57,921 nucleotides of DNA from Oligoflexia bacterium (GTDB taxonomy: Bacteria > Bdellovibrionota > UBA1018): the NCBI GenBank assembly GCA_043732485.1, contig JAYTHP010000212.1, forward strand, positions 1 through 57,921. The letters are read 5' to 3'. The position numbers and the translations under genes are program-made. The stretch's first letter is position 1; each line of letters begins with the position of its first letter. Positions 17,308 through 33,204 of this stretch are shown here, one piece after another. The notes below the pieces were generated by a model. That model worked only from the letters and a program-made list of their open reading frames with translations, did no database searches and had not been told where the DNA came from.

Positions 17308-17369
17308 ACCCCCAATGTATCTCAGGAAGGCGGTGGCGTCAAATTTGAAAATCGGCTAAGTTGAGAGCC

Positions 17370-18089
17370 ATGAAATACCTTGAATACCGCTGCACCGTGA
17401 CTGGCAAACAGCCCTTAACACCGACGGTGTTTCAGCTGCAGTTTGTCACCGAGCCGGACTTGCAGTTTGTGGGCGGACAGTTTGTCAGTATCGTGATTCC
17501 CGGGGCCTCACCCGAAGGGCGCGACCTGAGACGAGCCTATTCGCTGGCCTCTTCTCCCTCACAAAGGCCCTATGAACTGTGCATCAAGCGGGTCAAAGGA
17601 GGTCCTGGCACAACCTACTTAGATCACTTAGCAATCGGAGCCTGCTTTACGGCGGTGGCTCCTTACGGCGATTTTGTTTTTAAAACCGCGCGCGAACGTC
17701 AGGTTTTTTTCATCGCCACGGGTTCTGGCATTGCTCCTTTTCGCGCGATGATGGGCGGGGCGGAGTACCAGCAGGCCCCTCCGGTTTTGCCGCCCACTTG
17801 CTTACTCGGGGTGAGGAGCGAGGACGAAGTCTTGTATGATTCCTTTTTTCAAGCGCAACCCCAGGCCCGCTGGGTGCCGATGGTCTCGCAACCCACCCAT
17901 CCCACCGCTTGGACGGGTCAAAAAGGCAGGGTCACGGACTATTTGCGAGCTTTGGGGAAAGACTTTCCGTGGGAGCAAGCGGATTTCTATCTGTGTGGTA
18001 ACGGTCAGATGATCAAAGAAGTGAAAGGCATTTTGTTTGATCACCAGGTCTTAAAGACTGCCATTCATCAGGAAATCTACTTTCGCTGA
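17370..18089 (+). CDS. ferredoxin-NADP(+) reductase-family flavoprotein
   Basis: Motifs are RAYSLAS (R-x-Y-S FAD-binding), GGPGTTYL, FIATGSGIAPF (NAD(P)-binding) and YLCGNGQMI. ATG 17370 is preferred over the track's TTG at 17361. Confidence 0.8.
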   Translation: MKYLEYRCTVTGKQPLTPTVFQLQFVTEPDLQFVGGQFVSIVIPGASPEGRDLRRAYSLASSPSQRPYELCIKRVKGGPGTTYLDHLAIGACFTAVAPYGDFVFKTARERQVFFIATGSGIAPFRAMMGGAEYQQAPPVLPPTCLLGVRSEDEVLYDSFFQAQPQARWVPMVSQPTHPTAWTGQKGRVTDYLRALGKDFPWEQADFYLCGNGQMIKEVKGILFDHQVLKTAIHQEIYFR

Positions 18090-18972
18090 AAAAATGCGCC
18101 AGGTGGTCTTGCGTCAATAGCTCTTGCATCAGTTGCGGTTCGCTTTTGAGGGCTTTGGAGTAGAGGAAAAGAAAATCCCTGGTTTTTTGCGGGATGGGGC
18201 CCTGTGTGACGCAAGTGCGCTCTTGCACCAGGTGCAACAGTCTGGCCTCGCGCCTCCAAAAAAAGCGTAACCTCTTTAAAAGATGCTCCATTAAGCTTGC
18301 TGAGGCGCGAGCTGCCGCATTTTCAATCAACTGTAACGCCATCACCCCTAACAGGCGATCCGACTGCCCCTGCCAAAAAGCCACCCACAGAGAGGGCTCT
18401 GAGTGGTGCCATTCGCTAGGGAGATGGCGGACCTCGAACTGGTGTGAAAAGCGTGGCTTCTTTTTTGCCCCCCGCTTAGCTTGGGGAGTAAGATGCCCCA
18501 CGCGCTGGAGCAGAAACTTTAACCCCAAAAAGGCCTCCAGGGTCAAGGCGCGGGAGCGAAAGCAGCCAAAGAAGCGAAAGCCTGGGAACTTTTGCGGTTG
18601 AGTGGTGTAAACCCAGGTCATGCTGTCTTCAGCTTGCTGGTACCCGACGTAGGGATACAGATGAAAAAACCGAGCCACCACGTTCCATTTGGGGCGATGC
18701 GTTTGAATCTCATTAATTTCCAGGATGCGCGCTTCAAGATCGCTTGCCGTCACCTGATAAGTCAGCTGCGAGGCTTCCTTCAGCATGCGACTGACTTTTT
18801 TACTGCGCGGGCTGCGAGCTAGAGAACGATAACTGCGCAGACGCTTTTTCAGATTCTTAGCTTTACCGACATAGAGGATCTGTGCCTTGGCATCACGAAA
18901 GAAATAAATCCCTGGGCACGAGGGCACCTGGCTCAGAAAATCTGAGCCAAACTTGAGATCAAAGGCTTTCAT
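18013..18972 (-). CDS. GIY-YIG nuclease, homologue of the UvrC N-terminal half (Cho-like)
   Basis: The N-terminus reads PGIYFFRDAKAQILYVGKAKNLKKRLRSY...EARILEINEIQTHRPKWN, followed by FFGCFRSRALTLEAFLGLKFLLQ as in UvrC. No UvrC C-terminal endonuclease/HhH region is present. Confidence 0.7.
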   Translation of the reverse strand: MKAFDLKFGSDFLSQVPSCPGIYFFRDAKAQILYVGKAKNLKKRLRSYRSLARSPRSKKVSRMLKEASQLTYQVTASDLEARILEINEIQTHRPKWNVVARFFHLYPYVGYQQAEDSMTWVYTTQPQKFPGFRFFGCFRSRALTLEAFLGLKFLLQRVGHLTPQAKRGAKKKPRFSHQFEVRHLPSEWHHSEPSLWVAFWQGQSDRLLGVMALQLIENAAARASASLMEHLLKRLRFFWRREARLLHLVQERTCVTQGPIPQKTRDFLFLYSKALKSEPQLMQELLTQDHLAHFFSESRFPDEWQSLRPGDQTKCLSLL

Positions 18973-19637
18973 GACCTCTGTTTTTTCAAAGTCGAAGGGG
19001 CAGGGGAAGACAAAGGCAGCAGAGCAGCCGCCTTACCAGACGCACTAAAAGGATGGGCTTTTTCGGAAATTTCTTCCAATTTCCGCTCTGCCGTTTCCAG
19101 GTAACTCAATGCTAGCGCTTTTTCTCGCTTTTCTTTCTGCAAACTTTCGTCCAGTAGGTTGCGTTGTTCCTTATAGCTGTGCACCAGCTGACTTAACTCG
19201 TCGTTTTGTTGCTTCAAGCTCCAGTTTTGGTGCGCCAGCTTCTCAGCCTTCAGCAAAACCGCCTGCTCCCGCTCACTCCCCACCGTTTGTGCTTGCTGGG
19301 CTTCTTGCTTGGCTGTCTTCACCAGTAGGCTAGCCATTTCTAAGTCTTGCTTCAATTTCTTCTCCACCTTAGCGCGCTCTTGTGCCTGCGACTGCAAGAC
19401 TGTGGAGAGCAGCTGATTTTCCTCCACTAGCGCCCACAAGGTTTGCTGGATTTGCTCGCCTAACGCCTGCTCGGCTTGGATCAGTTGGTCAATTTTTTGA
19501 CTCCACTGGGGCGAAGAACCGTCTTGCCGCGACGAGGCCAAAGACGCTGCCGCACCCTCGCTCATGCCAACTTTCACCGCGGCAGGGGCATTCAAGGGAC
19601 GACGGCTGTTGTGCGGGGGCGGTGAGGAAGGGTTCAT
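18969..19637 (-). CDS. coiled-coil protein of unknown function
   Basis: This is a 222-aa ORF rich in heptad-like Q/E/K/L sequence. Its stop overlaps the start of the downstream GIY-YIG gene (ATGA at 18969-18972). Confidence 0.5.
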   Translation of the reverse strand: MNPSSPPPHNSRRPLNAPAAVKVGMSEGAAASLASSRQDGSSPQWSQKIDQLIQAEQALGEQIQQTLWALVEENQLLSTVLQSQAQERAKVEKKLKQDLEMASLLVKTAKQEAQQAQTVGSEREQAVLLKAEKLAHQNWSLKQQNDELSQLVHSYKEQRNLLDESLQKEKREKALALSYLETAERKLEEISEKAHPFSASGKAAALLPLSSPAPSTLKKQRS

Positions 19638-19910: not shown

Positions 19911-20000
19911 TGGCGGAGAGAGAGAGATTCGAACTCTCGAGCGGTTTTACCCGCTGCTCCCTTAGCAAGGGAGTGCCTTCGGCCACTCGGCCATCTCTCC
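19911..20000 (-). tRNA. tRNA-Ser (anticodon GCU), CCA encoded
   Basis: The reverse complement reads GGAGAGA TG GCCGAGTGGCCGAAGGC A CTCCC TTGCTAA GGGAG, then a long variable arm, GAGAG TTCGAAT CTCTC, TCTCTCC, G and CCA. The acceptor, anticodon and T stems all pair. Confidence 0.93.
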
Positions 20001-20236: not shown

Positions 20237-21312
20237 TTACTTCCGTCGTCTTGCCAGCCGATAGACTCTCGCTGTGGATGCACCTTGAGCGTCGATCACC
20301 CGTTGCTTGATCAGCACAACAACGTCACGCACCACCTTGCGACACGGAACATCGGACATCCATGCGACGATCTCTTGCTTTGAAAATTTACTCTTCTTCT
20401 GGGCAATGGATACGATCTTTCGCTGCCTGGCCTCAGGGGGCCTTTGAGCTTCTGCGCGGAGCAGACTTCGCCCTTCTTCTGCCGCTTCTTCCGCAGCCAC
20501 TGCGAAACATTCCGCCAAAAACTCAAGAAGGGGGTGCACAGAAACAAGCCCTCTACTTTGGCGAATGGCCAGGTAATAACGATCCCGGCCGCCCATGATG
20601 ACAGTCTCACTGGAGACAAGCCTTGCAAGGCGCTGACCACTCAAGAGGAGCAACAGCTGTTGCATTAGTCGCACAGTGCGACCCTTGCCACCAACAAAGG
20701 GATGGATGATAACGGCAATAAAATGGAAGGCAAAGGCTCGTGCGGCGGGGGGCATTCATCGATGCGCGCACCCGTCACGGCGCTCACGATACTTACCGGG
20801 TGGCTTCGAAGCCTCCCGCATTGCCTCTCATCAATTAAGTCCTACGGCAAGTCCTGCGGCAAGTCCTAGTTGACCAGCCTCTGTAGATCGCACATTTCGG
20901 CTATTTTGAGCGGAACGCCATCTTTTGTTAATCATTCAGCATAATCTAGGGCTTCGCGGTAGTTTTGCACTTCCTTGATATCCTTTTTGAGTCCTGCGAC
21001 CCTTTTCCCTTGCAAGAGGGCAGTCACTTCACTTTCCCCAAGCCCATTGCCTTCAAGTTGATGTGAGTAGGTGATGGCTCTCACCTTCGCGTTGCGCAAG
21101 AGCTTTAACTCCTGTGGAGCTGCTAAATATTCTTCCAAGAACGGCCTTGCTTTAGCAATCAGCATGAGCGATTTCACCAGGGTAGGCGTATAGCGAACCT
21201 CATGAGGGATCTTAAGACGGGGCTCAAATGAGGATATCTTGAAGGCATACCCTATTGTCCACCAAATGCCCGCCAGCCCGAGCGGGTATTGCTCCCGCTT
21301 GTTGCTGCTCAA
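20237..21312 (-). pseudogene. decayed Fic/DOC-family (AMPylase-type) gene
   Basis: An N-terminal piece (21312-20932, ending ...YREALDYAE*) and a C-terminal piece (20755-20237, with HPFVGGKGRTVR in place of HPFx[D/E]GNGRxxR) are present. The ~175-nt gap holds Fic-like peptide fragments in other frames (DGVPLKIAEMCDLQRLV; GRLRSHPVSIVS) and a 12-bp tandem repeat. Confidence 0.6.
20837..20869. repeat. 12-bp tandem repeat (aagtcctRcggc) x2.75 inside the Fic pseudogene gap
   Basis: Read directly: aagtcctacggc aagtcctgcggc aagtcctag. Confidence 0.85.
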
Positions 21313-21514: not shown

Positions 21515-22169
21515 ACCTAAGTTTTTATAGGTTATAGGCTAAAGCGCCAGAGCAAAAAGCCGCCGCAAGACCTTCTATTTGATATCGCTCATGAGCAAAA
21601 AGGCTATTTCACTGCTCAACAGGCCCTCCTTGCTGGGATTCCCGATAGCGCCCATGCCTATCACGTGCGAGCTGGAAACTGGGTTCGCGAGCAGCGCGGT
21701 ATTGATAGACTCGTGCGTTACCCCTCCACTGAGTTTGAAAACCTCATGGTCTGGTACCTAGGGTCGCGCGACCGCACAGGAACACCTAGAGACGTTTTTT
21801 CCTACGAAACGGCACTCCTCTTTTACGATCTCTCTGACGCCAACCACAGCAAGACGCACCTGACCGTCCCCCCTCACTTCAGACGCGCTCAGCAACCACC
21901 CCGAAGTCCTCGCTTTCCATAAGAAAAAGCTTGACCCGAGTAAAGCTCAGCTCAGATTTGGCTTGAAACTCACCTCTCCCCTGCGCACCCTACAAGACAT
22001 GGTCTCAAAGCCCTCCTCTTCGCTCGCTATCGTGGAGCAGGCGATCAACGGGTCCGTAGAGCGAGGGCTGGTACTTAGCAGGGAAATCCAACAGCCTCCA
22101 GAGCTTGCTCACTTCATGCGAGTTGTTATCCTTGCACGAGGCGCGCACTCACGTCTATCCCCGCAGTGA
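21515..22169 (+). pseudogene. frameshifted AbiEi-type (type IV toxin-antitoxin) antitoxin-like gene, no cognate toxin gene
   Basis: One frame reads FDIAHEQKGYFTAQQALLAGIPDSAHAYHVRAGNWVREQRGIDRLVRYP...HLTVPPHFRR and stops at 21922. The expected continuation (PEVLAFHKKKLDPSKAQLRFGLKLTSPLRTLQDMVS...) lies in another frame. No ATG start is present for the first part. Confidence 0.55.
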
Positions 22170-23072
22170 CCCGGACCGGTGCAGCAGCATCATGTGCGGG
22201 ACGGTGAGGGCAGCAAGCGCCGTAAAAACGACTCGCCAAAGCGGCGCGCCATCGCTCGCTCCTCCAACTTCCTGCAGGCGGCCTTCAACCGCCACGCCTA
22301 AGGCAATCACGACTAGGGTAGGTAACACGCCGCACCAGAGCCACTGCTGCCGCGTCAGGGTCGGCGCCCCTTGCACCGTGCGCACCAAGTGTCTGGGACT
22401 ATGCATCCCACAAAAGTACACACTAAAAGCTAACAGCGGAGGGAGGCACAAAGCCAGTGTGGCGTTAGCAGCCAAGATCGAGCCGTTCAGCCAGCGCTTC
22501 TTGACCAGACACTCAAGCACACCGCATGCCACCCCCCCTAGCCACAGCCCACTGAGGGGTTGTAACACCGCTTGAAAACTGGCCGCATCGCGAGGGCCGA
22601 CCCACCTGGCAAACACTTGGGTTACTTCGGCTGAGTGATTCCAAAAAGGCAGCACCACCAGCGTGCCGCCATAAACCAGCCTGGTGAGTGAGGACGACTG
22701 AGCACGCCTGAGATCCCCTGCAAAATGCCAGACAGAGAGCGCTAGAAAGAGCGCAAGCCCTGGGCTTGGCGCAAGCTGCAACCCTAAGAGCACCACACCT
22801 GTCGTTGCCAGGTAGCAAGCGACAAACAGCGCCCAGGCGCCAGCTTGCTTCAGCTGCCACGTCTGCTGAGCGTAAACCGTATCGAGTGACCCGTGTGGGA
22901 CGCCCAGTAACAAAAGCCCCAGCACCAGTATCTTGAAGAATTGCGGCCTGAGCAACTGCGGGAGCGCAAGGCCCCAGAGCTCTGGCGGCAGCCATCCCAC
23001 CGCGGCGTAGAGGACGAAGCAGGCTGCAAGCCCCGCTAAAAAAATGAGGGCTTGGCGGTCCTCGGCGCTCAC
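22155..23072 (-). CDS. blh: Brp/Blh-family beta-carotene 15,15'-dioxygenase (retinal synthase)
   Basis: This is a polytopic membrane protein with the Blh His-containing blocks GVPHGSLD, SVWHFAGD and GMHSPRHL. Its GTG start overlaps the crtY stop (GTGA at 23069-23072). Confidence 0.8.
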   Translation of the reverse strand: MSAEDRQALIFLAGLAACFVLYAAVGWLPPELWGLALPQLLRPQFFKILVLGLLLLGVPHGSLDTVYAQQTWQLKQAGAWALFVACYLATTGVVLLGLQLAPSPGLALFLALSVWHFAGDLRRAQSSSLTRLVYGGTLVVLPFWNHSAEVTQVFARWVGPRDAASFQAVLQPLSGLWLGGVACGVLECLVKKRWLNGSILAANATLALCLPPLLAFSVYFCGMHSPRHLVRTVQGAPTLTRQQWLWCGVLPTLVVIALGVAVEGRLQEVGGASDGAPLWRVVFTALAALTVPHMMLLHRSGSLRG

Positions 23073-24532
23073 CCTTTTTTCACCCGACCACCCCTACCCA
23101 CAACAACACTATCCCCGCGAGGCGATCGTAAGACCCGCGGCAGCTCAGCCAAGAACACCCCCGCTGGCATGGCGGCAATGATTTTTAGGCAATCCAGCCA
23201 GGTGGGGTGACCTGAGAGGAAACGAATCACTCGAGGGGTGGCGACGTTTTTAAAGAAGCGAAAAAATAACTCAGGCGCAATCTCAGGGTGCGAGCGCAAG
23301 ACGGCCAGAAAGACCTGATCCATCATCCTGATGCGCTTGCCGTCAGGAGCGTGAGGGATCGGGGGTAAGCCACGCTTGAGTTCACCAGCGCAGCTGCGAG
23401 CCCACACTTGGATCCGCTGAAAAGCATACCCCGTGCTGGGCCTGGCGGCTCCGGCCATCAGTCCCACCTGCAAGTAACTGGCATCTTGAACGGTCTGAGC
23501 AGACAGGCTTCCCATCGGTAGCACTCCTGCCTCCTCGCGCAGCACTGTGGTGACACCTGTTTCCCCTGCTCTTAGCCTGACTGCTTGCCTGGCAGCAGCC
23601 GCAAGCTCGCAAGCCGGGATGGGCGTGGGGGCAAAAACCGTGACTTCGACTAAAGCCTGGTGAGCGGAGCTCGGAATGACGTACGTGAAGAGAATGGGGC
23701 ACGGAGTAGGGAGGGGACGGGGCAAAGAGGCAGACGACGCGGCAACCACTCCCTCACGCTGACCCGGCTGATCGCCTTGCGCTTGGCTGTGGTGGTAAGG
23801 CGGTGGTACTGCTGCCGCTGCCGCTGCTGCTGCTGCTGCTGCTAGCTGCACCTGATCCCCTTCATTAAAGCTCATGAGATCAACACAATCGGCATCAAAA
23901 ATAGGCTCCTGGCTATGAACTTCTAAGCCATAAAACGACTGCCACAATCCTGCACTCGCCTCTATAAACGGAAGGTTTGCTGCCCCGCGCGTATCAACGA
24001 CATAGCGGGCCCGGTAGGTCCGCCCTTCGTTGTGGGTATTCGAAGGGGTGCGAGTGGTGGTTACTTCCCAGCTCCCCGAAGCTGTTTTCGAGGGCGCCTG
24101 CTCCACGTTGCTGCCGAGTTCTAACCTTACCTGGTGGTTACTTTGGGAAAAAACGGCTTGCGCATAGTCATAAAAGCGATCGCCTGGCAAAATGGCATAA
24201 GGGGTGCTGCTGCCGCACTCAAACTCGTGTGTCTGCCCCGCCTGACGCACCCGCATGCGGCTAAAACGGTGACTGACGAGCGCCTTGAAGGGATCTTTAG
24301 TAGCCGCCGCTGGAGAAGTCACTGGGTTTGGTTCCCAAAACGCCCAGGTGCGGTCATGCGAGTAGCTGAGGCGTTGTTCCAGGATCAAGACTTTCAGCCT
24401 CGCGCCTGCTTGCAACACAGCAAGCCCCAGGCTAAGCCCTGCGCAGCCCCCTCCCAGGATCAATAAGTCGACCTCCTCCGCTATTTGGCCTGACAGCGCG
24501 CTCCTGCTAACGCTCACCGGCGCCACCACCAT
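23069..24532 (-). CDS. crtY: lycopene beta-cyclase (CrtY type) with a low-complexity insert
   Basis: An FAD-binding DLLILGGGCAGLSLG lies near the N-terminus, and CrtY-like blocks are present (FTYVIPSSAHQALVEVTVF). ATG 24532 is preferred over the track start at 24679, which would overlap crtB by 166 nt. Confidence 0.85.
   Translation of the reverse strand: MVVAPVSVSRSALSGQIAEEVDLLILGGGCAGLSLGLAVLQAGARLKVLILEQRLSYSHDRTWAFWEPNPVTSPAAATKDPFKALVSHRFSRMRVRQAGQTHEFECGSSTPYAILPGDRFYDYAQAVFSQSNHQVRLELGSNVEQAPSKTASGSWEVTTTRTPSNTHNEGRTYRARYVVDTRGAANLPFIEASAGLWQSFYGLEVHSQEPIFDADCVDLMSFNEGDQVQLAAAAAAAAAAAVPPPYHHSQAQGDQPGQREGVVAASSASLPRPLPTPCPILFTYVIPSSAHQALVEVTVFAPTPIPACELAAAARQAVRLRAGETGVTTVLREEAGVLPMGSLSAQTVQDASYLQVGLMAGAARPSTGYAFQRIQVWARSCAGELKRGLPPIPHAPDGKRIRMMDQVFLAVLRSHPEIAPELFFRFFKNVATPRVIRFLSGHPTWLDCLKIIAAMPAGVFLAELPRVLRSPRGDSVVVGRGGRVKKG
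23811..23843. repeat. GCY trinucleotide run (11 units) encoding poly-Ala in crtY
   Basis: Read directly: gct gcc gct gcc gct gct gct gct gct gct gct. It is translated on the minus strand as a run of about 11 Ala. Confidence 0.9.
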
Positions 24533-25374
24533 CGCGGGGTGCAGACAAACCGGAGCACAGCGCGCGCCGTAAGCCGGGTTTTTTGCCAGCCGCTTAAAGA
24601 CACCCGCTTGCTCCAGTAATCGTAATCGCGGGCCTGAAGCTGAACTCCAATTTCCCGGTACAACGAAAGCGCCACCCATACGCCTAAGCGGGCACGGCGC
24701 GGTAGGTAGATTAAGCCGCGCTGCCCGCTGTCGTAATAGCGCTCAGCTAGTGCCAGCAAATGGCTAAGAGTCTTTTTTAAAACGACTTGCTGGGAAGCCT
24801 GGAGCTGAAAAGGAGCTTGTAACACGGCAAGCGAGAAGTCGCTTGCCTGTACCTGGCCAGGCAAGTCTTGCAGTAGGGCGGCCGGGAGATAGCGCCGCCC
24901 GAGTGCCGCGTCCTCTTTGACATCTCTGCAGATATTGGTCAACTGCATGGCCATCCCCAAGTCGCCTGCATGCTGGGCTGCCTGCCCTTTTTGCTCCACT
25001 TCCAACACGTCACACATCATGATCCCTACCGTGCCTGCCACCTGATAACAGTACTTGAGCAACTCACTTTCTGTTTCAAGCAGCAGCGGATCTAAGTCGC
25101 GCCCCACCCCAAGGATGAGCTCCTGCAAAGCAGCCGCGTTGATCTGCGCTGAGTGAAAAAACTCGCTCTGCAAGGTCTCTGCTTGCAACGCTTGCAGTTG
25201 CTTGCGGGTGACGGCAACTGACACCAGCCGCTCATCGACCAAATCATCAATACTACGGCAAATGGCGTAAAGCCAGGTGGCCCGCCTTGCCGCCTCGCGA
25301 CTGAGGAGCTGCTTGGCAAAAGCGAAGCTTTTCCCTTTGGCTTGCAATAAGGCCTCAGCCTGCTGGAAGTTCAA
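24514..25374 (-). CDS. crtB: phytoene synthase
   Basis: The motifs YAICRSIDDLVDE and NICRDVKEDAALGRRYLP (Asp-rich squalene/phytoene synthase motifs) are present. The TTG start overlaps the crtI stop (TTGA at 25371-25374). Confidence 0.9.
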   Translation of the reverse strand: MNFQQAEALLQAKGKSFAFAKQLLSREAARRATWLYAICRSIDDLVDERLVSVAVTRKQLQALQAETLQSEFFHSAQINAAALQELILGVGRDLDPLLLETESELLKYCYQVAGTVGIMMCDVLEVEQKGQAAQHAGDLGMAMQLTNICRDVKEDAALGRRYLPAALLQDLPGQVQASDFSLAVLQAPFQLQASQQVVLKKTLSHLLALAERYYDSGQRGLIYLPRRARLGVWVALSLYREIGVQLQARDYDYWSKRVSLSGWQKTRLTARAVLRFVCTPRWWWRR

Positions 25375-26921
25375 GAGGCCGCAACCGCGGTGGCGGCAGG
25401 AATCAGCTTATCAATCAAGCGCGCCGAGCAGAGCACGCCTGGTAGCCCCGCACCTGGATGAGTGCCTGCGCCCACCAGGTAGAGATTCTTAATCCCCTCA
25501 GCGCGGTTATGAAAACGAAACCACGCCGATTGCCGAAAGATCGGCGCAATCGAAAAACCGGCACCATGCTCGCTCAGATAATCTTTTTCAAAGTCGTCAG
25601 GCGTCATGAAAAAATCGCTAGTGATAGTTTCTTCTAAGCCAGGTAACATCGATTTTGCCAGGGCGCTTACGATACGATTGCGAAGCTTCGGGCCTTCCAC
25701 ACTCCAATCGAGCTGAGCTTGCTGATTGGGCACCGGACATAGCACGTAAAAGCTATCACAGCCCGCAGGCGCAAAGCTCGGATCAGTTGCCGTCGGCCGA
25801 TGCAAGTACAAGGAAAAGTCTTCAGCCAGGATCTGGCGATCAAAGATGTCTTTTAACAGCTCCCGGTAACGCGCCCCCATCCAGATCGTGTGATGCGCCA
25901 CCTCGTCATAAGTTTTCCGAGTGCCAAAGTACAAGACAAACAAGCCCATCGAGAACTTCGCGGTCTTAAGCTTCAGCCGGGTGACTTGCGATTGCTGCGC
26001 TTTGGCGATCATCGATCGGTAGAGATGGGCAGGATCGGCGTTTGAGACAATGAGATCAAAAGGTAAGCGCTCGCCCGTGCTTAAGCTCACGCCTTTTGCC
26101 ACCCCACGCTCCACTTCAATTTGAGTGATTGTGGTGTTCAAGCGAACGGTAATCCCTTGTCTGGCCATCAATCCCCCCAAGGCATCAATGATCGCTCCTG
26201 TGCCGCCCATGGCAAAATGCACCCCGTAGGCCCGCTCGAGAAAATGAATCAAAGCGTAGATGCTCGAAGTGTCAAAGGGATTGCCTCCCACCAGCAGCGG
26301 CTGGATGGAAAAAGCCTGCTGTAACTTGGGATGTGACAGGTAACTGGAGACCATCCCCCAAACGGTCTTGTAGTTTTTTAGCCTGATCAGACGCGGCACC
26401 TGGGCTAGCATCATCCGCAGCCGGTGAAACGGCGCGTCAGCTAACTCCAGGTAGCCGATATCAAAAATACGCTTCGAGTGCGCAAGCAACTGCTGATAGC
26501 CCTCGACATCGCGCGGCTCAATTTTTCGAATTTCTGCCAACGTGTCTTCCAAGGTGCCACCATAGTCAAAGGTCGAGCCGTCCTGGTAGTAAAAGCGGTA
26601 CCAGACCTTAAGCGGCACTAGTTTCAGATGATGCTCCATCGTCTCGCCAAACAGCGCAAAAAGCTCCTCAAATAAAAAAGGCGCCGTAATCACCGTGGGA
26701 CCTGCGTCGTGGCGAAAACCATCTTTTTCAAAGACCTGGCCGCGTCCACCCAGCCTCGGACAGCGATCCATCACGGTGACTTGATAGCCCTTGGCGCGCA
26801 TCCGCAAGGCTGCGGCGATCCCACCAAAGCCTGCTCCAATCACCAGCGCGGTAGGGGGCTGGGGAACAGCAGTGACGGGAGTGGAGTGATGCAAGGGTGT
26901 GGAGGCATGGGTAGCGGTCAT
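25371..26921 (-). CDS. crtI: phytoene desaturase
   Basis: The N-terminal dinucleotide fold is LVIGAGFGGIAAALRM..GYQVTVMD, and the C-terminal block is LYLVGAGTHPGAGLPGV. The length of 516 aa is typical of CrtI. Confidence 0.92.
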   Translation of the reverse strand: MTATHASTPLHHSTPVTAVPQPPTALVIGAGFGGIAAALRMRAKGYQVTVMDRCPRLGGRGQVFEKDGFRHDAGPTVITAPFLFEELFALFGETMEHHLKLVPLKVWYRFYYQDGSTFDYGGTLEDTLAEIRKIEPRDVEGYQQLLAHSKRIFDIGYLELADAPFHRLRMMLAQVPRLIRLKNYKTVWGMVSSYLSHPKLQQAFSIQPLLVGGNPFDTSSIYALIHFLERAYGVHFAMGGTGAIIDALGGLMARQGITVRLNTTITQIEVERGVAKGVSLSTGERLPFDLIVSNADPAHLYRSMIAKAQQSQVTRLKLKTAKFSMGLFVLYFGTRKTYDEVAHHTIWMGARYRELLKDIFDRQILAEDFSLYLHRPTATDPSFAPAGCDSFYVLCPVPNQQAQLDWSVEGPKLRNRIVSALAKSMLPGLEETITSDFFMTPDDFEKDYLSEHGAGFSIAPIFRQSAWFRFHNRAEGIKNLYLVGAGTHPGAGLPGVLCSARLIDKLIPAATAVAAS

Positions 26922-26986
26922 AAGTCACCTTTTTTTTTCAAGGGTTCAAAGCGTGATAGAATCAGGGAAAGTCGCCAAGAGTCATA

Positions 26987-27012
26987 TAGAATGAGGCAGT
27001 AGAATGAGGCAG
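26987..27012. repeat. 13-bp perfect tandem direct repeat (tagaatgaggcag x2) upstream of crtI
   Basis: Read directly at 26987-26999 and 27000-27012. A degenerate third copy, tagaatcaggga, lies near 26957. It sits in the 246-nt crtE-crtI spacer. Confidence 0.85.
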
Positions 27013-27167
27013 TTCGTACGTCAGAGATCACAGCGGAAAAGCATCTCGAACCCTCCTCTGGGTTATAAGGCTTTTCACGGGCTTTGCATGAACCTTTCAT
27101 GAACTTCTTGGGCACTTCCGATCACCAACCCCTCCCCTGAAGCGAGATGGGGGTGGCGCGTGTGTGA

Positions 27168-28226
27168 TCAAAAAATCGACATCTCTCTTGCTAGGCTTTG
27201 CAAATACTGCCCCGAGTGGCCGGGTAAGTCACGCGCCATCGCTTCTGCGGAAGCAAAATAGCTGCGCGCCAGCGCCTTCACCTGCTCTAGCGCCTGCTGC
27301 TCGCTGCCCTGTCGCAAGATCCATTCATAGAGATTCAAACTGGCAGGCTTACCCTCTTGTGCCTGATCCTGCTTAAGGTCCACTAAATCATCACGAATCT
27401 GGTAGCCAACCGCGAAATCCTCGGCCGCACGCCGGGCCCAGGTTAAAGCCTGAAAATTTTCTGAGGCAATCAAGGCCAACTCTAACGGTAAACTGAGCAA
27501 CGCGCCTGATTTGGCCTTCACCACCTCGGCATAACTCTCTACCCCTGCAAGACCCCGACTCGCCGACGCTGTCGTTCCGGCTGCCCACCCGCCGCAAGCA
27601 TTTAGCATTTCTGCGCCCCGCAGGTCATCACACTGTCCGTCAATGGCGGCTGACACGCAGCGATGCATCGCCCGCAGCAGCGCAGGCAACAGCCGCGGCT
27701 GACTGAAGTGCGATAGGGCCCCGTAAGCACTGGAAATCATGTAATCTCCCGCACAAATTGCAACTGCCGGTGAAAACTTCACCCACACCGCTTCACACCC
27801 CCTCCGCTCGGTTGCTTGATCCTGTAAGTCATCGTGAACTAACGAGGCATTGTGCAGCAGCTCTACCACGGCACAAAGCAGCAGCGCGTCCTCACGCGCG
27901 ACGCCTAGGCTCAGGCAAGCGCTCCAACCAATGCGCGCCCGCGTGCGACTCCCACCGGAGCTGACCTGGTACAAGGCTGCCTGGGCCGCTTGGCTAAGGC
28001 CTGACCGATGCTGCAAATAAGGCAAGACCTTCTGCGGGTGGGTCGGATCTAGGGCTGCGCTCGTCAAAGTCCTAAGACCCAGGCCGGCTCCCGTGAGCAA
28101 CTCGGTCATCTTGCGCTCAACCGCCCCCATCCCCTCCTCTTGGGCAGCTGCAAGTGCTCCCCCGGCAGCCGCCATCAACGGGTTACTTACCAGGTTACTT
28201 AGCGGATCACTTGGCATGTCACACAC
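27168..28226 (-). CDS. crtE: geranylgeranyl-diphosphate (polyprenyl) synthase
   Basis: The first Asp-rich motif is LVHDDLQD and the second is QIRDDLVD. Its position between the rhodopsin and crtI matches canonical photosystem clusters. Confidence 0.85.
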   Translation of the reverse strand: MCDMPSDPLSNLVSNPLMAAAGGALAAAQEEGMGAVERKMTELLTGAGLGLRTLTSAALDPTHPQKVLPYLQHRSGLSQAAQAALYQVSSGGSRTRARIGWSACLSLGVAREDALLLCAVVELLHNASLVHDDLQDQATERRGCEAVWVKFSPAVAICAGDYMISSAYGALSHFSQPRLLPALLRAMHRCVSAAIDGQCDDLRGAEMLNACGGWAAGTTASASRGLAGVESYAEVVKAKSGALLSLPLELALIASENFQALTWARRAAEDFAVGYQIRDDLVDLKQDQAQEGKPASLNLYEWILRQGSEQQALEQVKALARSYFASAEAMARDLPGHSGQYLQSLAREMSIF

Positions 28227-28355
28227 CTCTTGGCTGAGAAGTCTTAAAGTTTAAGGCAAAAGCCCGATCAGCCCCGTGAGGACCAACCGGGCTCAATGTT
28301 TTTACTCTTTTTTTTGTTCTGGTTTAGCTCTGGTTCTCAGTTCTGATCATCGTTT

Positions 28356-28385
28356 GCACTCCCTATGGCTGCACTCCTTATGGCA
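28356..28385. repeat. 15-bp tandem direct repeat (gcactccYtatggcW x2) between the rhodopsin and crtE
   Basis: Read directly: gcactccctatggct at 28356-28370 and gcactccttatggca at 28371-28385. Confidence 0.85.
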
Positions 28386-28418
28386 AACTTCTGCAACAAC
28401 CCAAAGACCCGAGAAAAA

Positions 28419-29183
28419 TCAGTGCGCGCCCTTAGGCAAGGACCCATCGGCTTCCGACTTCGCTCTGGCAATCCAGTAGATCATCACACCGTAGAAGGCT
28501 TTGGCCAACACGTCAGAAATGGCGTAGCCGACTTGAACTGCGACAATCGAGGACTCCGAGGCGATCCCGAAGGTAGGCAAGAAAAAGGTGATAGGGTAAA
28601 ACGACCAAGTAACGAGCAACAACAGTCTGATGTTGGCAGTTAAATCTTTCACTGCCTCAGGCTGGTGCTTCATGGCCGAACCCAGCTTGCCCCATAAAAC
28701 TGACAAGATGTACAAGAAAGGGATCATGCTCAGCGTGCCCCAAGCCGCTCGGGTCATCATATCGCCTGCAATTTCTCCAGGATAACCTAAAGCGATCATC
28801 AAGAAGGCGGCCAAACCGAGCCTAGCAAACAACCCCTTTTGATCAGCTTTCGAAAACGCCAGCACTGAAATCAATTCGATTAACAGCAACGGCACCGTCA
28901 GCAACCAGTCCACATATCGATAAGCATCGTTAAAAGGAACGCCTGATGGCTTAAATACTCCAGCCGTCATGGTATAAGCATGCGACCAGCTATCGAAAAT
29001 TCTTAAGTAATGGTATCCAGCAATCGCCACCACCACCGCGGAAATCAGCAGTGCTGGGCGATATTTTTCACCCACCTGGCTTCGTGCCCCGAGAAAAAAG
29101 ACAAAAGCCCCTAGCATGGCAGCAATGGTGAACGACAAAGCGTTGTAAACAGCAAAGTACTGGCCTGTAGTTAATTCAAGCAT
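28419..29183 (-). CDS. microbial rhodopsin, xanthorhodopsin/Gloeobacter-rhodopsin-like outward proton pump (DTE motif)
   Basis: This is a seven-helix protein of 254 aa. Key blocks are AGYHYLRIF (H58), RYVDWLLTVPLLLIE (R89, D92, T96, L100, E103), GYPGEI, AAWGTLSMIPFLYILSVLW (G149) and VQVGYAISDVLAK (D224, Schiff-base K228). Confidence 0.93.
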   Translation of the reverse strand: MLELTTGQYFAVYNALSFTIAAMLGAFVFFLGARSQVGEKYRPALLISAVVVAIAGYHYLRIFDSWSHAYTMTAGVFKPSGVPFNDAYRYVDWLLTVPLLLIELISVLAFSKADQKGLFARLGLAAFLMIALGYPGEIAGDMMTRAAWGTLSMIPFLYILSVLWGKLGSAMKHQPEAVKDLTANIRLLLLVTWSFYPITFFLPTFGIASESSIVAVQVGYAISDVLAKAFYGVMIYWIARAKSEADGSLPKGAH

Positions 29184-29192
29184 TACACTGAT

Positions 29193-29216
29193 CTCCTTTG
29201 AGATGACCTCATTTTA
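29193..29216 (-). promoter_or_regulatory. rhodopsin ribosome-binding site and candidate -10 element
   Basis: On the minus strand, AAAGGAG (29199-29193) lies 9 nt before ATG 29183. TAAAAT (29216-29211) lies upstream. The -35 element is weak or unclear. Confidence 0.35.
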
Positions 29217-29493
29217 GTTTGCTTAACATTTTTTAACGCAGCTGCGAAAGACTACGTCGCTTGGTGATTTTAGCCTTCAACGACTACTTTTTTCTTTTTT
29301 GGCTGCGTCAGTCACTTGAGTCTACACCTTCGGTGCCCAATGTCTAGTCCCTAAATGGGTCAACTCAATCCACCCCCGGTGAGTGTTGCAATTTTGACGC
29401 TTGTAGCGCCCCGTTTTGCTCCCTTGAGGCTCTTGCAATCCTTAAAATCTCTCGAAGACCCGAGATCTAAACTTTTTCGCTCAACTACTGCAC

Positions 29494-30480
29494 CTACTGC
29501 CTGACAAGCCTCAGGGGCTCTGCCGATACCTGCCAGCCGCAGCCGGCGCCGCGAGAAGCCCGAAAAGGGTTAATCTCCATTCCCCCTCGTCTGGTATAGC
29601 GGGCATAGACGGATAACACCTCAGGTTGGGTGTGCCGCCAGAGGTCCATAAAAATCCGTTCGACACATTGCTCATGAAACTCGTTATGATTGCGAAACGA
29701 GACAACATACCTGAGTAGCCCTTCATGCCAAAGTTTACGCCCACGGTAACGAATGGCAAGCGAACCCCAATCGGGTTGCCCGGTGATCAAGCAATTGGAT
29801 TTTAAGAGATGAGTGATAAGTGTTTCTTCAATGATTTCAGAGCTTTCAGGCCCAGAGCCGCACTGCAAAAGGTCCGGCTGAGGGGTGAAGTCGCTGCACT
29901 CCACGTCAAGCCCATCCAGGCAAAGCCCCTGAAAGTTTCCAAACCCTCTGCTAGGGTAATCCTCCACGGGCACCAAATCCAGCGTGACCTTGCCCTGGAC
30001 GGCAGCTGAGACGTCGCGCACCATGTGCTCTTGCACCACGCTCAGGCTCTCAAAGCGCGACTGATTAAACGAGTTCAAGTACAATTTGAAGGACTTGGAC
30101 TCAATCAAAGCCACAGAATCACAAGGGATTTGAAAGTGGGCAATAGCCACCCGCGGTTTCCCTCGGGGGTTGAGCCAGGAAACCTCATAGCCCGTCCACA
30201 AATCGACGCCCTCAAATGGCAACGGTTGCTCGCTCAGCCCCAACTCAGCTCGCTTGAGCTGCCGAGGCAGGGGGAACAAAAGCCCAGGCGAGTAAGTTTG
30301 AAGATACTGCGAGGAGACGCCCAACGGAGAGCCCTGGAGGCCCTGCGCAGAAACACCCCCGCCTGGCTCGTGAGCATTCCTGAGGGAGGAGTCGGCCTTG
30401 CTTGTCGGGCCGGGGGCTGAAGCAGGGGGAGCATGTTCAAAGGCCTTGAGGTCTGCCCCTGGCAAAAGGTGTTTTGTCAT
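29494..30480 (-). CDS. queF: NADPH-dependent 7-cyano-7-deazaguanine (preQ0) reductase, type II (two-domain) QueF
   Basis: Long blocks match the E. coli-type QueF as I recall it: IESKSFKLYLNSFNQSRF, HLLKSNCLITGQPDWGS, SFRNHNEFHEQCVERIF and SVYARYTRRGG. The ~45-aa N-terminal extension is questionable, since an internal TTG start is possible. Confidence 0.9.
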   Translation of the reverse strand: MTKHLLPGADLKAFEHAPPASAPGPTSKADSSLRNAHEPGGGVSAQGLQGSPLGVSSQYLQTYSPGLLFPLPRQLKRAELGLSEQPLPFEGVDLWTGYEVSWLNPRGKPRVAIAHFQIPCDSVALIESKSFKLYLNSFNQSRFESLSVVQEHMVRDVSAAVQGKVTLDLVPVEDYPSRGFGNFQGLCLDGLDVECSDFTPQPDLLQCGSGPESSEIIEETLITHLLKSNCLITGQPDWGSLAIRYRGRKLWHEGLLRYVVSFRNHNEFHEQCVERIFMDLWRHTQPEVLSVYARYTRRGGMEINPFRASRGAGCGWQVSAEPLRLVRQ

Positions 30481-30770
30481 AAGAAAAAAAAGAAACCAAC
30501 GAGAGACAAGTGAGCTTCAGAACAGGCCACGAGCCCCTGGTGACAGACCCCAGGGTCCCCCATTTGAGATCCTCGTTAAAATCGTTCTGCCGCAGTCTCT
30601 CTTGCTTGAAGTGCGGTTCAAAGTGAGCGACCCTTGGCCACTACCCACTTCTCTTGAACTAAGGGAAACTGAAGCCGCGTTCAAGCTCCGGTTTTTTTGA
30701 GTCCTCTCAAGGAGCGGTCACTTTCGAGCTAGCAGAAACAGCTTCAAAAGTAAAGAAAACTCCTCATCAG

Positions 30771-30794
30771 CTCACCCTTGCGCTCACCCTTGCA
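30771..30794. repeat. 12-bp tandem direct repeat (ctcacccttgcR x2)
   Basis: Read directly in the queF/SDR divergent intergenic region. Confidence 0.85.
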
Positions 30795-30809
30795 ATTACC
30801 GACCTCTTC

Positions 30810-30831
30810 AGAGAGACTAGAGAGAGACTAG
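30810..30831. repeat. 11-bp perfect tandem direct repeat (agagagactag x2)
   Basis: Read directly, 16 nt downstream of the previous repeat. Confidence 0.85.
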
Positions 30832-31081
30832 AAAAAAACGAGAGAAGCCTAAGCAGAAGAGCACAGAGGGCTCGAAAGTCCCTCAAGCTTGGGCTTCCCG
30901 CTGACGCGGCCGACCCACTCGCACCTATTTTTTCTCCTGGGCTTTCTTTGGGGCCTATCCCCTAACCAAAAGCAGGGATCGCGGCGGCAGGTGGGGACGT
31001 AAACTGGAGACTTTGCCGTCCCCGAGGCTTAACCCGGTGGCGCAACAAGCGACCCAGCACCAAAGGAAAACGCTAAAGACC

Positions 31082-32050
31082 ATGACCCAACCCAAAAATA
31101 CTCCTCCCGAGCAAGCACTGAACAGACACCCACAAGGCGCCTTTAGCCGCAAAGCCTTTGGATCCGCCTCCACCGCAGAGGAGGTCACGCAAGGGCTAGA
31201 CTTAACAGGTCAAACTATCCTGCTGACGGGCTGTAATTCCGGGTTAGGGCAAGAATCCCTGCGCGTGTTGCACCTGCGGGGAGCTCAGATCTACGCCGCC
31301 GCCCGCACTCTGGAAAAAGCCCAGGCGGCAAGCGCTCCCTATTCCAGTTCAAGCCGAGTGCTGCCTGTGGCTTGCGATCTTGCCGATCCAGCTAGCATTT
31401 TGCGGCTGGTGGACGCCTTGAAAGCCAAAAACGTGCAACTTGATGTCATTTTATGCAATGCCGGCGTTATGGCTTTACCCAAGCGCCAGGAGATTGCTGG
31501 CGTGGAGTTACAGTTTTTTACGAATCATTTTGGGCACTTTCTCCTCGTCACCAGGCTGCTCGATCACTTGTCGCCAGGCGCCAGAATCGTTCTGATCAGC
31601 AGCCAAGCCCACCGCATGGCGCCTGCTGGCGGGATTAACTTTTCTCACCTCACCCAGAAGGCGGGTTATCGTCCCTGGACCGCCTACGGTCAATCGAAGA
31701 TGGCTAACTTACTGTTTTGCTCTCACCTCGCCCTCAAGCTCCGGGGAACTGGCAAAACCGTCAATGCGGTGCATCCCGGAGTGATTCTCACCCCGCTGTG
31801 GCGCCATATGCCAGGCTTAGTGGGCTGGATCATGAACCGGATCGCGCCTCTCTTCTTAAAAACCATTTCTCAAGGAGCGGCCACCGGAGTTTTTGTCGCC
31901 GTCCACCCGCAAGCAGCCGGCGTGTCAGGGAAATACTGGATGGACTGCCAGGTTGCCAAAGCCCGCAAAGAGGCCACCGATCCGCAGCTTGCTCAGCAGC
32001 TATGGCAATTCTCGGAAGACTTAGCCGCCGCCTCCACCCCTCCGTCTTAG
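31082..32050 (+). CDS. short-chain dehydrogenase/reductase, retinol-dehydrogenase/WWOX-like subgroup
   Basis: Motifs are LLTGCNSGLGQES (TGxxxGxG), NAGVMALP, FFTNHFGHFLL and YGQSKMANLLF (YxxxK). ATG 31082 is preferred over the track start at 31013. Confidence 0.8.
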   Translation: MTQPKNTPPEQALNRHPQGAFSRKAFGSASTAEEVTQGLDLTGQTILLTGCNSGLGQESLRVLHLRGAQIYAAARTLEKAQAASAPYSSSSRVLPVACDLADPASILRLVDALKAKNVQLDVILCNAGVMALPKRQEIAGVELQFFTNHFGHFLLVTRLLDHLSPGARIVLISSQAHRMAPAGGINFSHLTQKAGYRPWTAYGQSKMANLLFCSHLALKLRGTGKTVNAVHPGVILTPLWRHMPGLVGWIMNRIAPLFLKTISQGAATGVFVAVHPQAAGVSGKYWMDCQVAKARKEATDPQLAQQLWQFSEDLAAASTPPS

Positions 32051-33204
32051 GGGCCGCGCAGATCGCTTGCTCTTGCGGTTTGCTGCCTTAACCAGTGATC
32101 CGCCACAATGATGGCCGCCATCGCTTCCACAATCACTACCGCCCGTGGCAAAACGCAAGGATCATGGCGCCCGCTCCCCGGCAGCAGGGTGCTTGCACCT
32201 GTGGCCGTCACTGTGCTTTGGCTTTGCATCAGGCTTGAGGTCGGCTTAAAAGCCACTCTAAAGGTGATCGGCATGCCGTTACTAATCCCGCCTTGAATCC
32301 CTCCCGAGTGATTGGTGAGGGTTTTAAGCTCAGGCAGAGCCAATGGACTTGCCGCAACTTGCGGGGAGAGGCTGCCTGCAGCCGTTTGCTCGGGCCTCAC
32401 CCAAAGGTCGTTTTGTTGCGAACCCCTTTGGGCACATCCCGCAAAGCCTGATCCCACCTCAAAGCCCTTCACCGCATTGATACTGAGCATCGCCTTACCC
32501 AAATCTGCGTGCAAACGATCAAACACCGGCTCCCCTAGCCCGACTGGCACTCCCGTGATCACCCCGGAGATCACCCCGCCCAGGCTATCGCCTTGCGCTT
32601 TGGCCTCTTCAATCAACAGAATCATGGCTTGAGCCGCAGCCTCATCCGAGCAAAGCACCGCAGTGGCGTTGCGCTGGGCTAATAACTCAGGCGTCCAGTT
32701 TTCCAGCCGCTTAGCCATCACCGATCCCACCTGCGTCACCGCAGCGCAGATGCTGATCCCTAGCGGTCTGAGGAGCATTTGCGCCACGGAGCCTGCAACC
32801 ACCCGCGCCACCGTCTCACGCGCCGAAGCCCGCCCGCCGCCGCGGTGATCGCGAATCCCGTATTTTTTTTGGTACGTATAATCGGCATGGGAAGGACGAA
32901 AACTGCCTTGCAGGTGATCGTAATCTTGCGAGCGTGCATCCTGATTCGCAATCAAGGCTGCAAGCGGCGTTCCGGTGGTTTGTCCCTCAAAAACCCCCCC
33001 GACCCATTGCGGCTGATCTTGCTCTCGTCTGGCGCTTTGCAAGTGCGATTGCCCAGGCCTACGCAGTCGCAAATTAGCCGCCAAAAGTTCGTCATCGAGC
33101 CTCACCCCCGCTGGACAGCCATCCACCACCACGCCGATCATGGGACCGTGCGACTCACCAAAAGTGGTGACCTTAAAAAGCTCTCCAATCGTATTTCCGG
33201 CCAT
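32047..33204 (-). CDS. aroC: chorismate synthase
   Basis: The sequence reads MAGNTIGELFKVTTFGESHGPMIGVVVDGCPAG...RRPGQS...GGGRASARET...SGRHDPCV. ATG 33204 overlaps the aroB stop (TAATG). Confidence 0.92.
   Translation of the reverse strand: MAGNTIGELFKVTTFGESHGPMIGVVVDGCPAGVRLDDELLAANLRLRRPGQSHLQSARREQDQPQWVGGVFEGQTTGTPLAALIANQDARSQDYDHLQGSFRPSHADYTYQKKYGIRDHRGGGRASARETVARVVAGSVAQMLLRPLGISICAAVTQVGSVMAKRLENWTPELLAQRNATAVLCSDEAAAQAMILLIEEAKAQGDSLGGVISGVITGVPVGLGEPVFDRLHADLGKAMLSINAVKGFEVGSGFAGCAQRGSQQNDLWVRPEQTAAGSLSPQVAASPLALPELKTLTNHSGGIQGGISNGMPITFRVAFKPTSSLMQSQSTVTATGASTLLPGSGRHDPCVLPRAVVIVEAMAAIIVADHWLRQQTARASDLRGP

Follow-up and report, generated by a model that had tools for sequence, protein, structure and literature searches.

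A putative xanthorhodopsin and retinal biosynthesis module of apparently mosaic ancestry in an uncultured Bdellovibrionota bacterium

INTRODUCTION

Two described kinds of rhodopsin photosystem bear closely on the gene cluster reported here. In the marine photosystem of marine Proteobacteria, a proteorhodopsin (PR) pump is encoded together with crtEIBY and blh, and in some versions also with idi; the Blh protein from a 'crtEIBY, blh' cluster turns beta-carotene into retinal in Escherichia coli (Sabehi et al. 2005; PMC1175822). In the second kind, described as 'XR-crtEIBY-brp' operons in Tardiphaga glacier isolates (PMC7701988), the pump is a xanthorhodopsin (XR). We describe here six minus-strand genes at positions 22155 to 29183 of contig JAYTHP010000212.1 (assembly GCA_043732485.1, Oligoflexia bacterium), within a stretch of 57,921 nucleotides that is referred to as the window. 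These genes, in the order opsin-crtE-crtI-crtB-crtY-blh, very probably form a retinal-based light-energy module in a Bdellovibrionota host, with an opsin and an enzyme cassette that are most likely joined as an old mosaic. The cluster shares its biosynthetic logic and enzyme order with the marine photosystem, although its pump is a xanthorhodopsin rather than a proteorhodopsin. It has the same six genes, order, orientation, and overlapping crtB and crtY as the XR-crtEIBY-brp/blh operons of Proteobacteria, namely those of Tardiphaga, of a Polaromonas metagenome-assembled genome (MAG; JABBPC010000032, here L084), and of GCA_037443605.1 (L085).

Among solved structures the best-scoring relative of the opsin is Kin4B8 (PDB 7YTB/8I2Z), which is encoded on a fosmid from Lake Kinneret that derives from an uncultured member of the Bdellovibrionota (Chazan et al.; bioRxiv 10.1101/2022.08.24.505090) and is 58% identical to the window opsin over 248 columns. 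The two proteins come from the same phylum and have in common the DTE motif, the His-Asp counterion pair, the green-tuning Leu, and the fenestration Gly (G153 in Kin4B8, G149 here), but they differ at the fenestration floor, which is Ser208/Tyr209 in Kin4B8 and Thr204/Phe205 in the window opsin. The xanthorhodopsin of Salinibacter ruber (3DDL) and Gloeobacter rhodopsin (6NWD) belong to one family with the window opsin and share its DTE motif and fenestration Gly (Gly156/Gly149), but their antennas are 4-keto carotenoids that the host cells synthesize, whereas no ketolase gene was found near the window opsin.

RESULTS

Organization of the cluster

The six open reading frames (ORFs) are consecutive and co-directional, all are in frame, and each has one terminal stop, as seen both in the ORF listing and in a reading of the strand. 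All lie on the minus strand. The opsin (28419-29183) has 254 amino acids and is a predicted outward proton pump of the xanthorhodopsin family. It is followed by crtE (27168-28217; 349 amino acids from the ATG at 28217), coding for a predicted CrtE-type prenyl-diphosphate (geranylgeranyl diphosphate [GGPP]) synthase, crtI (25371-26921; 516 amino acids), coding for a phytoene desaturase, and crtB (24514-25374; 286 amino acids, TTG start), coding for a predicted phytoene synthase. The last two genes are crtY (23069-24532; 487 amino acids), coding for a predicted CrtY-type lycopene beta-cyclase, and blh (22155-23072; 305 amino acids, GTG start), coding for a Brp/Blh beta-carotene 15,15'-dioxygenase. 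Five retinal-pathway enzymes therefore adjoin the opsin in the canonical photosystem order, which is also that of L084, L085, and the published clusters (PMC1175822; PMC7701988). The chance occurrence of such a pattern is ruled out, with five of the six products clearing curated Pfam thresholds by wide margins. Plus-strand ORFs across the cluster (e.g., 22105-22575) sit within or over genes with strong family matches and are treated as antisense artifacts.

The junctions are tight in the distal part of the cluster. The TGA stop of crtI overlaps the TTG start of crtB in TTGA (25371-25374), crtB and crtY overlap by 19 nt (24514-24532), and the GTG start of blh overlaps the crtY stop in GTGA (23069-23072), giving overlaps of 4, 19, and 4 nt. 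The crtB/crtY overlap also occurs in L084, L085, and GCA_027486675.1 (L082). The overlaps from which a preliminary description of the locus deduced translational coupling of these four genes are borne out by the reading of the strand, and crtI, crtB, crtY, and blh are probably translated as one operon. The opsin and crtE are set apart by spacers of 192 nt (opsin-crtE) and 246 nt (crtE-crtI), and these values, the junctions, the gene coordinates, and the order all read as they were first described. The start codons fared unevenly: ATG 24532 of crtY agrees better with the homologue alignment than the start of the longest ORF, at 24679, whereas for crtE the initially reported GTG at 28226 (352 amino acids) is less likely than ATG 28217, because AAGAGG precedes the ATG and a separate gene call gives 349 amino acids. 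With that start the first spacer is 201 nt.

The opsin is a predicted xanthorhodopsin-family proton pump

The opsin matches Pfam PF01036 (Bac_rhodopsin) at 6e-35 over residues 19-237. Its nearest solved structures are Kin4B8 (7ytb; 1.3e-82), psXR, Gloeobacter rhodopsin (6nwd; 2e-80), and Salinibacter XR (3ddl; 7e-77), and the structures in this nearest range (1e-82 to 1e-77) belong to XR-family proteins for which outward proton pumping has been demonstrated. XR-clade structures as a whole score from 1e-82 to 8e-63, as opposed to about 1e-25 for chloride and sodium pumps and about 1e-20 for PR. The residues expected of a pump are present: His58, Arg89, the DTE set Asp92-Thr96-Glu103, Asp224, and Lys228 as the Schiff base lysine in an SDVLAK motif, with Leu100 at the spectral-tuning site (green). 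This pump-residue set is common to all 16 cluster opsins that were compared. The protein has the seven-helix domain with the helix G Lys, the DTE motif with its His counterion partner, and a closer affinity to XR than to PR, NQ, or BR proteins, and its simplest reading is as a green-absorbing outward proton pump. It had been described at first as the opsin of a marine-type cluster; residues and structures agree with a proton-pump family, but the protein is a xanthorhodopsin and not a marine proteorhodopsin.

The retinal-pathway enzymes

Profile searches with Pfam and NCBIfam place all six products in the families assigned to them beforehand. CrtI has 574 bits against NCBIfam TIGR02734 (cut-off, 238) and a Pfam Amino_oxidase match, and it is 72-79% identical to CrtI of the Polaromonas/Herminiimonas-type cassettes and of sibling contigs described below. 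Blh scores 146 bits against TIGR03753 (cut-off, 95) and 3e-36 against Pfam PF15461 (BCD). Its residues His60, His116, His224, His228, and His293 are invariant across the aligned homologues; published biochemistry of Blh assigns such histidines the role of iron ligands. The possibility that the blh candidate is something other than a carotenoid oxygenase, raised at the outset as a way in which the proposal could fail, did not materialize. CrtE matches Pfam PF00348 (polyprenyl_synt) at 5e-36 and is 41-58% identical to crtE products in the same position in L082, L084, L085, L090, and L091 (the last two being ERZ27314285 contigs); the aligned cluster homologues all share its DDLQD and DDLVD motifs, and compared with homologues it has about 47 additional N-terminal amino acids and a 16-amino-acid insert. 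CrtB matches Pfam PF00494 (SQS_PSY) at 1e-49, and its place between crtI and crtY together with 40-55% identity to cluster homologues supports its designation as the putative phytoene synthase.

CrtY matches Pfam PF05834 (Lycopene_cycl) with 141 bits split over two stretches, and it is 42-45% identical over aligned columns to CrtY of L082-L085. It is about 95 amino acids longer than its homologues, and an insert of about 50 residues accounts for most of the excess. This insert (23696-23857, minus strand; residues ~226-279) is lineage specific; in it, Ala11 leads into a segment rich in Pro, Ser, and Gln, and the poly-Ala is the product of an imperfect (GCA)n repeat (23809-23849; Tandem Repeats Finder: period 3, 13 copies). 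It is absent from the four cluster CrtY homologues that were aligned. In a search of 1.84 billion representative proteins, all 149 homologues among the matches listed align in two stretches around the insert, and the closest representative relative among those matches is 48% identical. Residues invariant across 60 homologues are nonetheless kept. The AlphaFold2 model has a flavoprotein fold (mean predicted local distance difference test score [pLDDT], 85.6; predicted template modeling score, 0.86), in which residues 245-270 fall below a pLDDT of 50 and the flanks, two well-modeled strands, are above 90; in the PDB the model comes closest to FAD-dependent geranylgeranyl reductases and to enzymes of the p-hydroxybenzoate hydroxylase type. 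Sequence and model together indicate that CrtY is probably functional, although it is the weakest link of the pathway.

Profiles, pump residues, the Blh histidines, the CrtE motifs, and the CrtY model thus lend in silico support to the proposal that the module is complete. In such a module, CrtE would supply geranylgeranyl diphosphate, CrtB would condense it to phytoene, CrtI would desaturate phytoene to lycopene, and CrtY would cyclize lycopene to beta-carotene, which Blh would cleave at the 15,15' bond to yield two molecules of all-trans-retinal. Retinal would bind Lys228 of the opsin, which would then pump protons outward in green light, and the resulting proton-motive force would supplement the F1Fo ATP synthase, motility, and transport.

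Opsin and enzymes have different closest relatives

All AtpD matches with a phylum-level label are Bdellovibrionota, Oligoflexia, or Bdellovibrionia (84-87% identity), and this placement, suggested as a check when the cluster was first noted, makes the host an uncultured member of the Bdellovibrionota, whose representatives are usually regarded as strict organoheterotrophic predators. Rhodopsin-bearing Bdellovibrio and Oligoflexia MAGs are, however, listed in glacier and lake studies, and the structure of the Bdellovibrionota xanthorhodopsin Kin4B8 has been solved, so this host context is not new and is less surprising than the first description of the cluster had it.

We compared the best 80 genome loci found with the opsin and the best 120 relatives of CrtI. 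The opsin loci are led by Bdellovibrionota MAGs (65-75% identity), and the layout of the window occurs in none of the 80. Loci L001-L003 have the opsin alone, and in L004 (Pseudobdellovibrionaceae), L005 (Bdellovibrio sp.), L086, and L088 a crtB-crtI-crtE set is divergent from the opsin. These divergent clusters have the closest opsins outside the siblings (68-72%), with the fenestration Gly, but their CrtI proteins are just 44-45% identical to that of the window. Among the best 120 CrtI relatives the only taxon-named ones are Polaromonas and Herminiimonas, with CrtI identities of 72-78%. The L084- and L085-type operons are the closest taxon-named enzyme relatives of the window (CrtI, 72-73%), whereas their opsins are 31-50% identical to the window opsin; those of L084 and L082 are of the PR type and that of L085 is a nonfenestrated (Trp) XR. 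They also differ from the window in having short intergenic spacers and in lacking the extensions and inserts of its CrtE, CrtI, and CrtY.

The two sets of relatives thus give opposite profiles. In the high-opsin-identity loci of the Bdellovibrionota clade, the opsin is 65-75% identical, CrtE is weak or absent, CrtI is 42-47%, CrtB 30-35%, and CrtY 20-25% identical, and Blh was not detected, whereas in the high-enzyme-identity loci (L082, L084, and L085) the opsin is 29-50%, CrtE 41-48%, CrtI 72-77%, CrtB 40-46%, CrtY 34-36%, and Blh 35-37% identical. Neighbor-joining trees agree with this split. The sibling contigs L089/L090 and L091 (~47% GC) have both affinities and the window order, with identities of 78-79% for the opsin, 58% for crtE, 75-79% for crtI, and 55% for crtB. 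Judging from these affinities, the cluster is most likely a mosaic, and likely an old one, in which a xanthorhodopsin of Bdellovibrionota type stands together with a retinal cassette of proteobacterial type. The cassette would either have joined the xanthorhodopsin or have had its own opsin replaced by one, and at least two sibling lineages would share the result; because L089/L090 and L091 have the same gene order, the arrangement would predate their divergence.

We note that two Chlamydiales-labeled MAGs, L073 (10001-15300) and L049, have an XR-like opsin (53-57%) followed by co-directional crtI and crtB, and that L073, whose opsin is nonfenestrated (Phe), also has crtY and blh. Their CrtI proteins (53-55%) are intermediate between the two cassette types.

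The fenestration glycine and antenna carotenoids

Gly149 of the opsin aligns with Gly156 of XR and Gly153 of Kin4B8, and it is kept in all 12 Bdellovibrionota-clade opsins compared. A Gly at XR position 156 opens the fenestration and is required for binding of a carotenoid antenna, and Kin4B8 binds lutein and zeaxanthin with energy transfer to retinal (bioRxiv 10.1101/2022.08.24.505090), whereas beta-carotene does not bind. Position 204 is Thr here, Ser208 in Kin4B8, and Met in most clade members, and Phe205 stands in place of Tyr209 of Kin4B8. Ketolase, hydroxylase, CruF-like, glycosyltransferase, and acyltransferase genes were not found among the scanned window ORFs of at least 150 amino acids.

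This gene content differs from that of some close opsin relatives. L086 (7418-9397) and L088 (10822-12828), with opsins at 69-72%, code for a single CrtY::Blh fusion of 659-668 amino acids (Lycopene_cycl plus BCD domains), with neighboring glycosyltransferase, acyltransferase, Caroten_synth (CruF-like), and FA_desaturase genes. From its families, this set looks like a self-contained one for synthesis of a modified antenna carotenoid plus retinal. The window cluster is of another kind, with crtY and blh separate, all genes co-directional, and no such accessory genes. As far as sequence shows, the pump may use a xanthophyll made by genes outside this cluster, one that the cell scavenges, or no antenna at all.

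Spacers and expression units

The opsin has a strong ribosome-binding site (AAAGGAG, 7 nt upstream of the ATG), and 125 nt downstream of its stop lies a candidate terminator or attenuator hairpin (28258-28294, minus strand) with a 16-bp stem followed by UUUU. Its local fold of -24.9 kcal/mol (z = -4.4) was matched in stability by none of 200 shuffles, although a simple terminator scan did not pick it up; it is the only local structure that stands out, the folds of whole spacers being no more stable than shuffles. The crtE-crtI spacer (26922-27167, minus strand) has a hairpin at 27123-27157. These features suggest that the cluster comprises at least two expression units, the first being the opsin with its own ribosome-binding site and downstream hairpin and the second a translationally coupled crtI-crtB-crtY-blh operon, with crtE lying between them and a spacer on either side.

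Both spacers have perfect or near-perfect tandem duplications, of 15 nt (two copies; 28355-28384) between the opsin and crtE and of 13 nt (two copies; 26987-27012) between crtE and crtI, which might represent operator-like sites or have arisen by slippage. The spacers are not repeated or mobile elements, each being unique within the window and the fetched loci. The siblings lack such long spacers, their opsin-crtE gap being 77 nt and their crtE/crtI overlap 4 nt.

Genomic neighborhood

The window is chromosomal core, with mnmG, rsmG, parA, parB, the atp operon, aroA/B/C, and queF, and by this gene content it is an origin-proximal core region. The only Rfam match at the gathering threshold is a tRNA. 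The cluster had been put forward as the sole clearly accessory block in the window, which does not hold: the stretch from blh to tRNA-Ser(GCU) (19911-20000) contains a decayed Fic gene and further gene remnants. These comprise about 2 kb of broken ORFs (20237-21312, minus strand; 21579-22169, plus strand) that look like decaying accessory DNA. The Fic-family gene is in two pieces (Fic_N, 20.1 bits; Fic, 22.8 bits; both slightly below Pfam thresholds) and its degenerate active-site motif now reads HPFVGGKGR; the three fragments that are out of frame match no family. A reading of 21579-22169 as an AbiEi-type antitoxin remnant was dropped, because Pfam gave no match to it up to E = 1. The interval 17361-19637, on the 3' side of the tRNA, has a GC skew reversed relative to most of the window and codes for an FNR-like reductase, a GIY-YIG-domain protein (18013-18972), and an unassigned 222-amino-acid ORF; it may be a small separate insertion.

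Several other genes are of note. Two adjacent multi-PAS histidine kinases that resemble each other (minus strand; 10351-13638, 1095 amino acids, and 13776-16943, 1055 amino acids) lie 5-12 kb from the cluster, and a HAMP-SpoIIE (PP2C) phosphatase is at 7636-9759. A 754-amino-acid fusion of a His_Phos_1 domain and 5-enolpyruvylshikimate-3-phosphate synthase (AroA; 34395-36659, minus strand) heads the aroA-aroB-aroC run. Two genes from the opsin is a short-chain dehydrogenase/reductase (SDR; 31013-32050, plus strand), whose best solved relative is an uncharacterized mycobacterial SDR (1e-32), followed by light-dependent protochlorophyllide oxidoreductases (~1e-22); a tie to retinal was considered and set aside, as its solved relatives give no specific link to retinoid metabolism. 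Low-complexity extensions occur throughout the window, including AtpD (49229-50701; 490 versus 474 amino acids), QueF (29494-30480; ~58 extra N-terminal residues), and CrtI (~25). Some N-terminal extensions may reflect over-extension to an upstream start codon, whereas the internal inserts are real. Among the database entries encountered, proteins of MAG LF-bin-178 are assigned to 'Methylotenera sp.' by one source but to 'Oligoflexia bacterium' by a second, and a 761-amino-acid JGI protein that scored above the AtpD self-match carries extra P-loop domains and may be a fusion or a gene-calling artifact.

DISCUSSION

The gene identities, conserved residues, gene order, and sequence affinities of this cluster are observations, and together they make a light-energy module of mosaic ancestry very probable. 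Several points weigh against that interpretation. All NCBIfam matches of CrtE fall below the equivalog cut-offs, as do the CrtB and HpnD matches of CrtB, and the NCBIfam matches of CrtY are likewise below cut-off; the exact functions of CrtE, CrtB, and CrtY consequently rest on Pfam-level membership and context. The cluster has no idi, and the isoprenoid precursor pathway lies outside the window. The low-complexity insert might impair the cyclase, and the (GCA)n repeat may be variable in length or mis-assembled: a contig of a separate Logan assembly stops within it, with one mismatch there, which leaves the number of repeat units uncertain. Scans of the cluster for promoter and terminator consensus sequences gave counts not above those of shuffles. 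The neighbor-joining trees have no support values, and L082, L085, L090, and L091 have no taxon label, so that the donor of the cassette and the direction of its transfer are uncertain, and L082 may itself be a Bdellovibrionota genome. Enzyme activities, pumping, transcription units, and the direction and timing of transfer are matters that we infer.

Two alternatives concern what the module does. One is that the pathway is broken at CrtY, with the insert inactivating the cyclase, lycopene accumulating, and retinal coming from outside. The uniqueness of the insert among the 149 representative homologues listed, its coding by a slippage-prone trinucleotide repeat, and the break of the other assembly at that repeat all point this way, but the frame is intact through 162 nt, the residues invariant in 60 homologues are kept, the insert is modeled as a helix plus a disordered loop between confident strands with a core above a pLDDT of 90, and the downstream blh is intact and translationally coupled; we regard a broken pathway as very improbable. 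The other alternative extends the light-energy module rather than excluding it. The opsin would be a two-chromophore XR carrying at its Gly149 fenestration a xanthophyll from which blue/violet excitation is transferred to retinal; the xanthophyll, which the cluster does not make, would be produced elsewhere in the genome or come from prey or the surroundings. The Gly that carotenoid binding requires is kept here and in the whole set of clade opsins compared, Kin4B8 binds lutein and zeaxanthin with energy transfer, and residue 204 is a polar Thr, where Kin4B8 has Ser208 and most clade members have Met. The end products of the cluster, however, are predicted to be beta-carotene, which Kin4B8 does not bind, and retinal; no xanthophyll-forming gene is among the scanned ORFs, the differently organized close relatives carry antenna-carotenoid genes beside the opsin, and Phe205 replaces Tyr209. 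A second chromophore is therefore no more than tentatively suggested.

The remaining alternatives concern how the module arose. Vertical inheritance within Bdellovibrionota, with the enzyme affinities reflecting two old cassette types in the phylum or a transfer from Bdellovibrionota to Betaproteobacteria, would fit a fully host-like composition and the fact that the closest CrtI carriers, L082 and L091 (77-79%), have a GC content of about 47-48%, unlike Polaromonas, and no taxon label. All labeled loci of the phylum with crt genes close to the opsin (L004, L005, L008, L009, L013, L014, and L020) and the unlabeled L086 and L088, on the other hand, have CrtI proteins at just 42-47% and another architecture, and all taxon-named close CrtI relatives are Burkholderiales; we consider vertical inheritance unlikely. 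A more elaborate version of the mosaic, in which the lineage kept its fenestrated xanthorhodopsin, swapped a lineage-typical cluster (divergent crtEIB, fused CrtY::Blh, and acylated glycosyl keto-carotenoid genes) for the crtEIBY-blh of Betaproteobacteria, which are potential prey, scavenged antenna xanthophylls from prey or water, and adapted to hydroxylated carotenoids through Thr204, is quite improbable as a whole. We are very doubtful that the module is a recently acquired island dropped into the core region beside tRNA-Ser. The disagreement between opsin and enzyme relatives, the decayed Fic gene, broken ORFs, and tRNA-Ser(GCU) just downstream of blh, and queF/aro flanks that occur in none of the fetched relatives would suit such an island. 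However, between the cluster and the remainder of the window the tetranucleotide correlation is r = 0.899 (leave-out controls, 0.914 +/- 0.022) and the GC content of the cluster is 0.563 versus 0.551, neither of which departs from the window; no integrase or transposase ORFs, att-like direct repeats, or tRNA-derived repeats longer than 16 nt were found in the window, and the closest relatives are merely 55-79% identical at the protein level. A tRNA-linked island was rejected in particular, with repeats of the tRNA-Ser region being only chance matches of at most 16 nt and the 3' end of the tRNA facing away from the cluster. An assembly chimera, with a proteobacterial crt cassette joined in silico to a Bdellovibrionota contig, would also make the opsin and enzymes differ in their closest relatives, but it is scarcely credible: the separate Logan assembly (SRR23617243, L081) reproduces window positions 23818-39183 with one mismatch, running without a break from aroB to crtY, the tetranucleotide signature resembles that of the host and differs from that of Polaromonas (correlation, 0.58-0.61), and the siblings share the opsin-crtE-crtI-crtB junctions.

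The old mosaic thus remains the preferred account, and any transfer is, judging by composition and by the mosaic shared with the sibling contigs, old and without signs of a recent event. The early description of the cluster as accessory stands in the evolutionary sense that opsin and enzyme relatives disagree, but it does not extend to a recent island, given the host-like composition and the lack of mobility genes and att repeats found. A metagenome scan with Blh for syntenic clusters found no relative, and one with AroC for a syntenic genome without the cluster gave relatives of at most 54% identity and no synteny. The sibling contig L089 has a different gene upstream of the cluster.

The module type (XR-crtEIBY-blh), the pump family, and the presence of such rhodopsins in the phylum are already published (PMC1175822; PMC7701988; bioRxiv 10.1101/2022.08.24.505090), and the current understanding is therefore unchanged. 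Three of its features are of moderate interest, namely its mosaic ancestry, its lack or loss of the antenna-carotenoid genes that close opsin relatives carry, and the repeat-encoded CrtY insert. The cluster adds a well-resolved and apparently complete example of rhodopsin phototrophy in Bdellovibrionota, and the contrast with its close opsin relatives offers a natural setting in which to ask when fenestrated xanthorhodopsins would depend on self-made antennas and when on scavenged ones. It also indicates that opsin and retinal-pathway genes can have separate histories within one compact cluster, and this supports the idea that rhodopsin photosystems are modular and can be exchanged.

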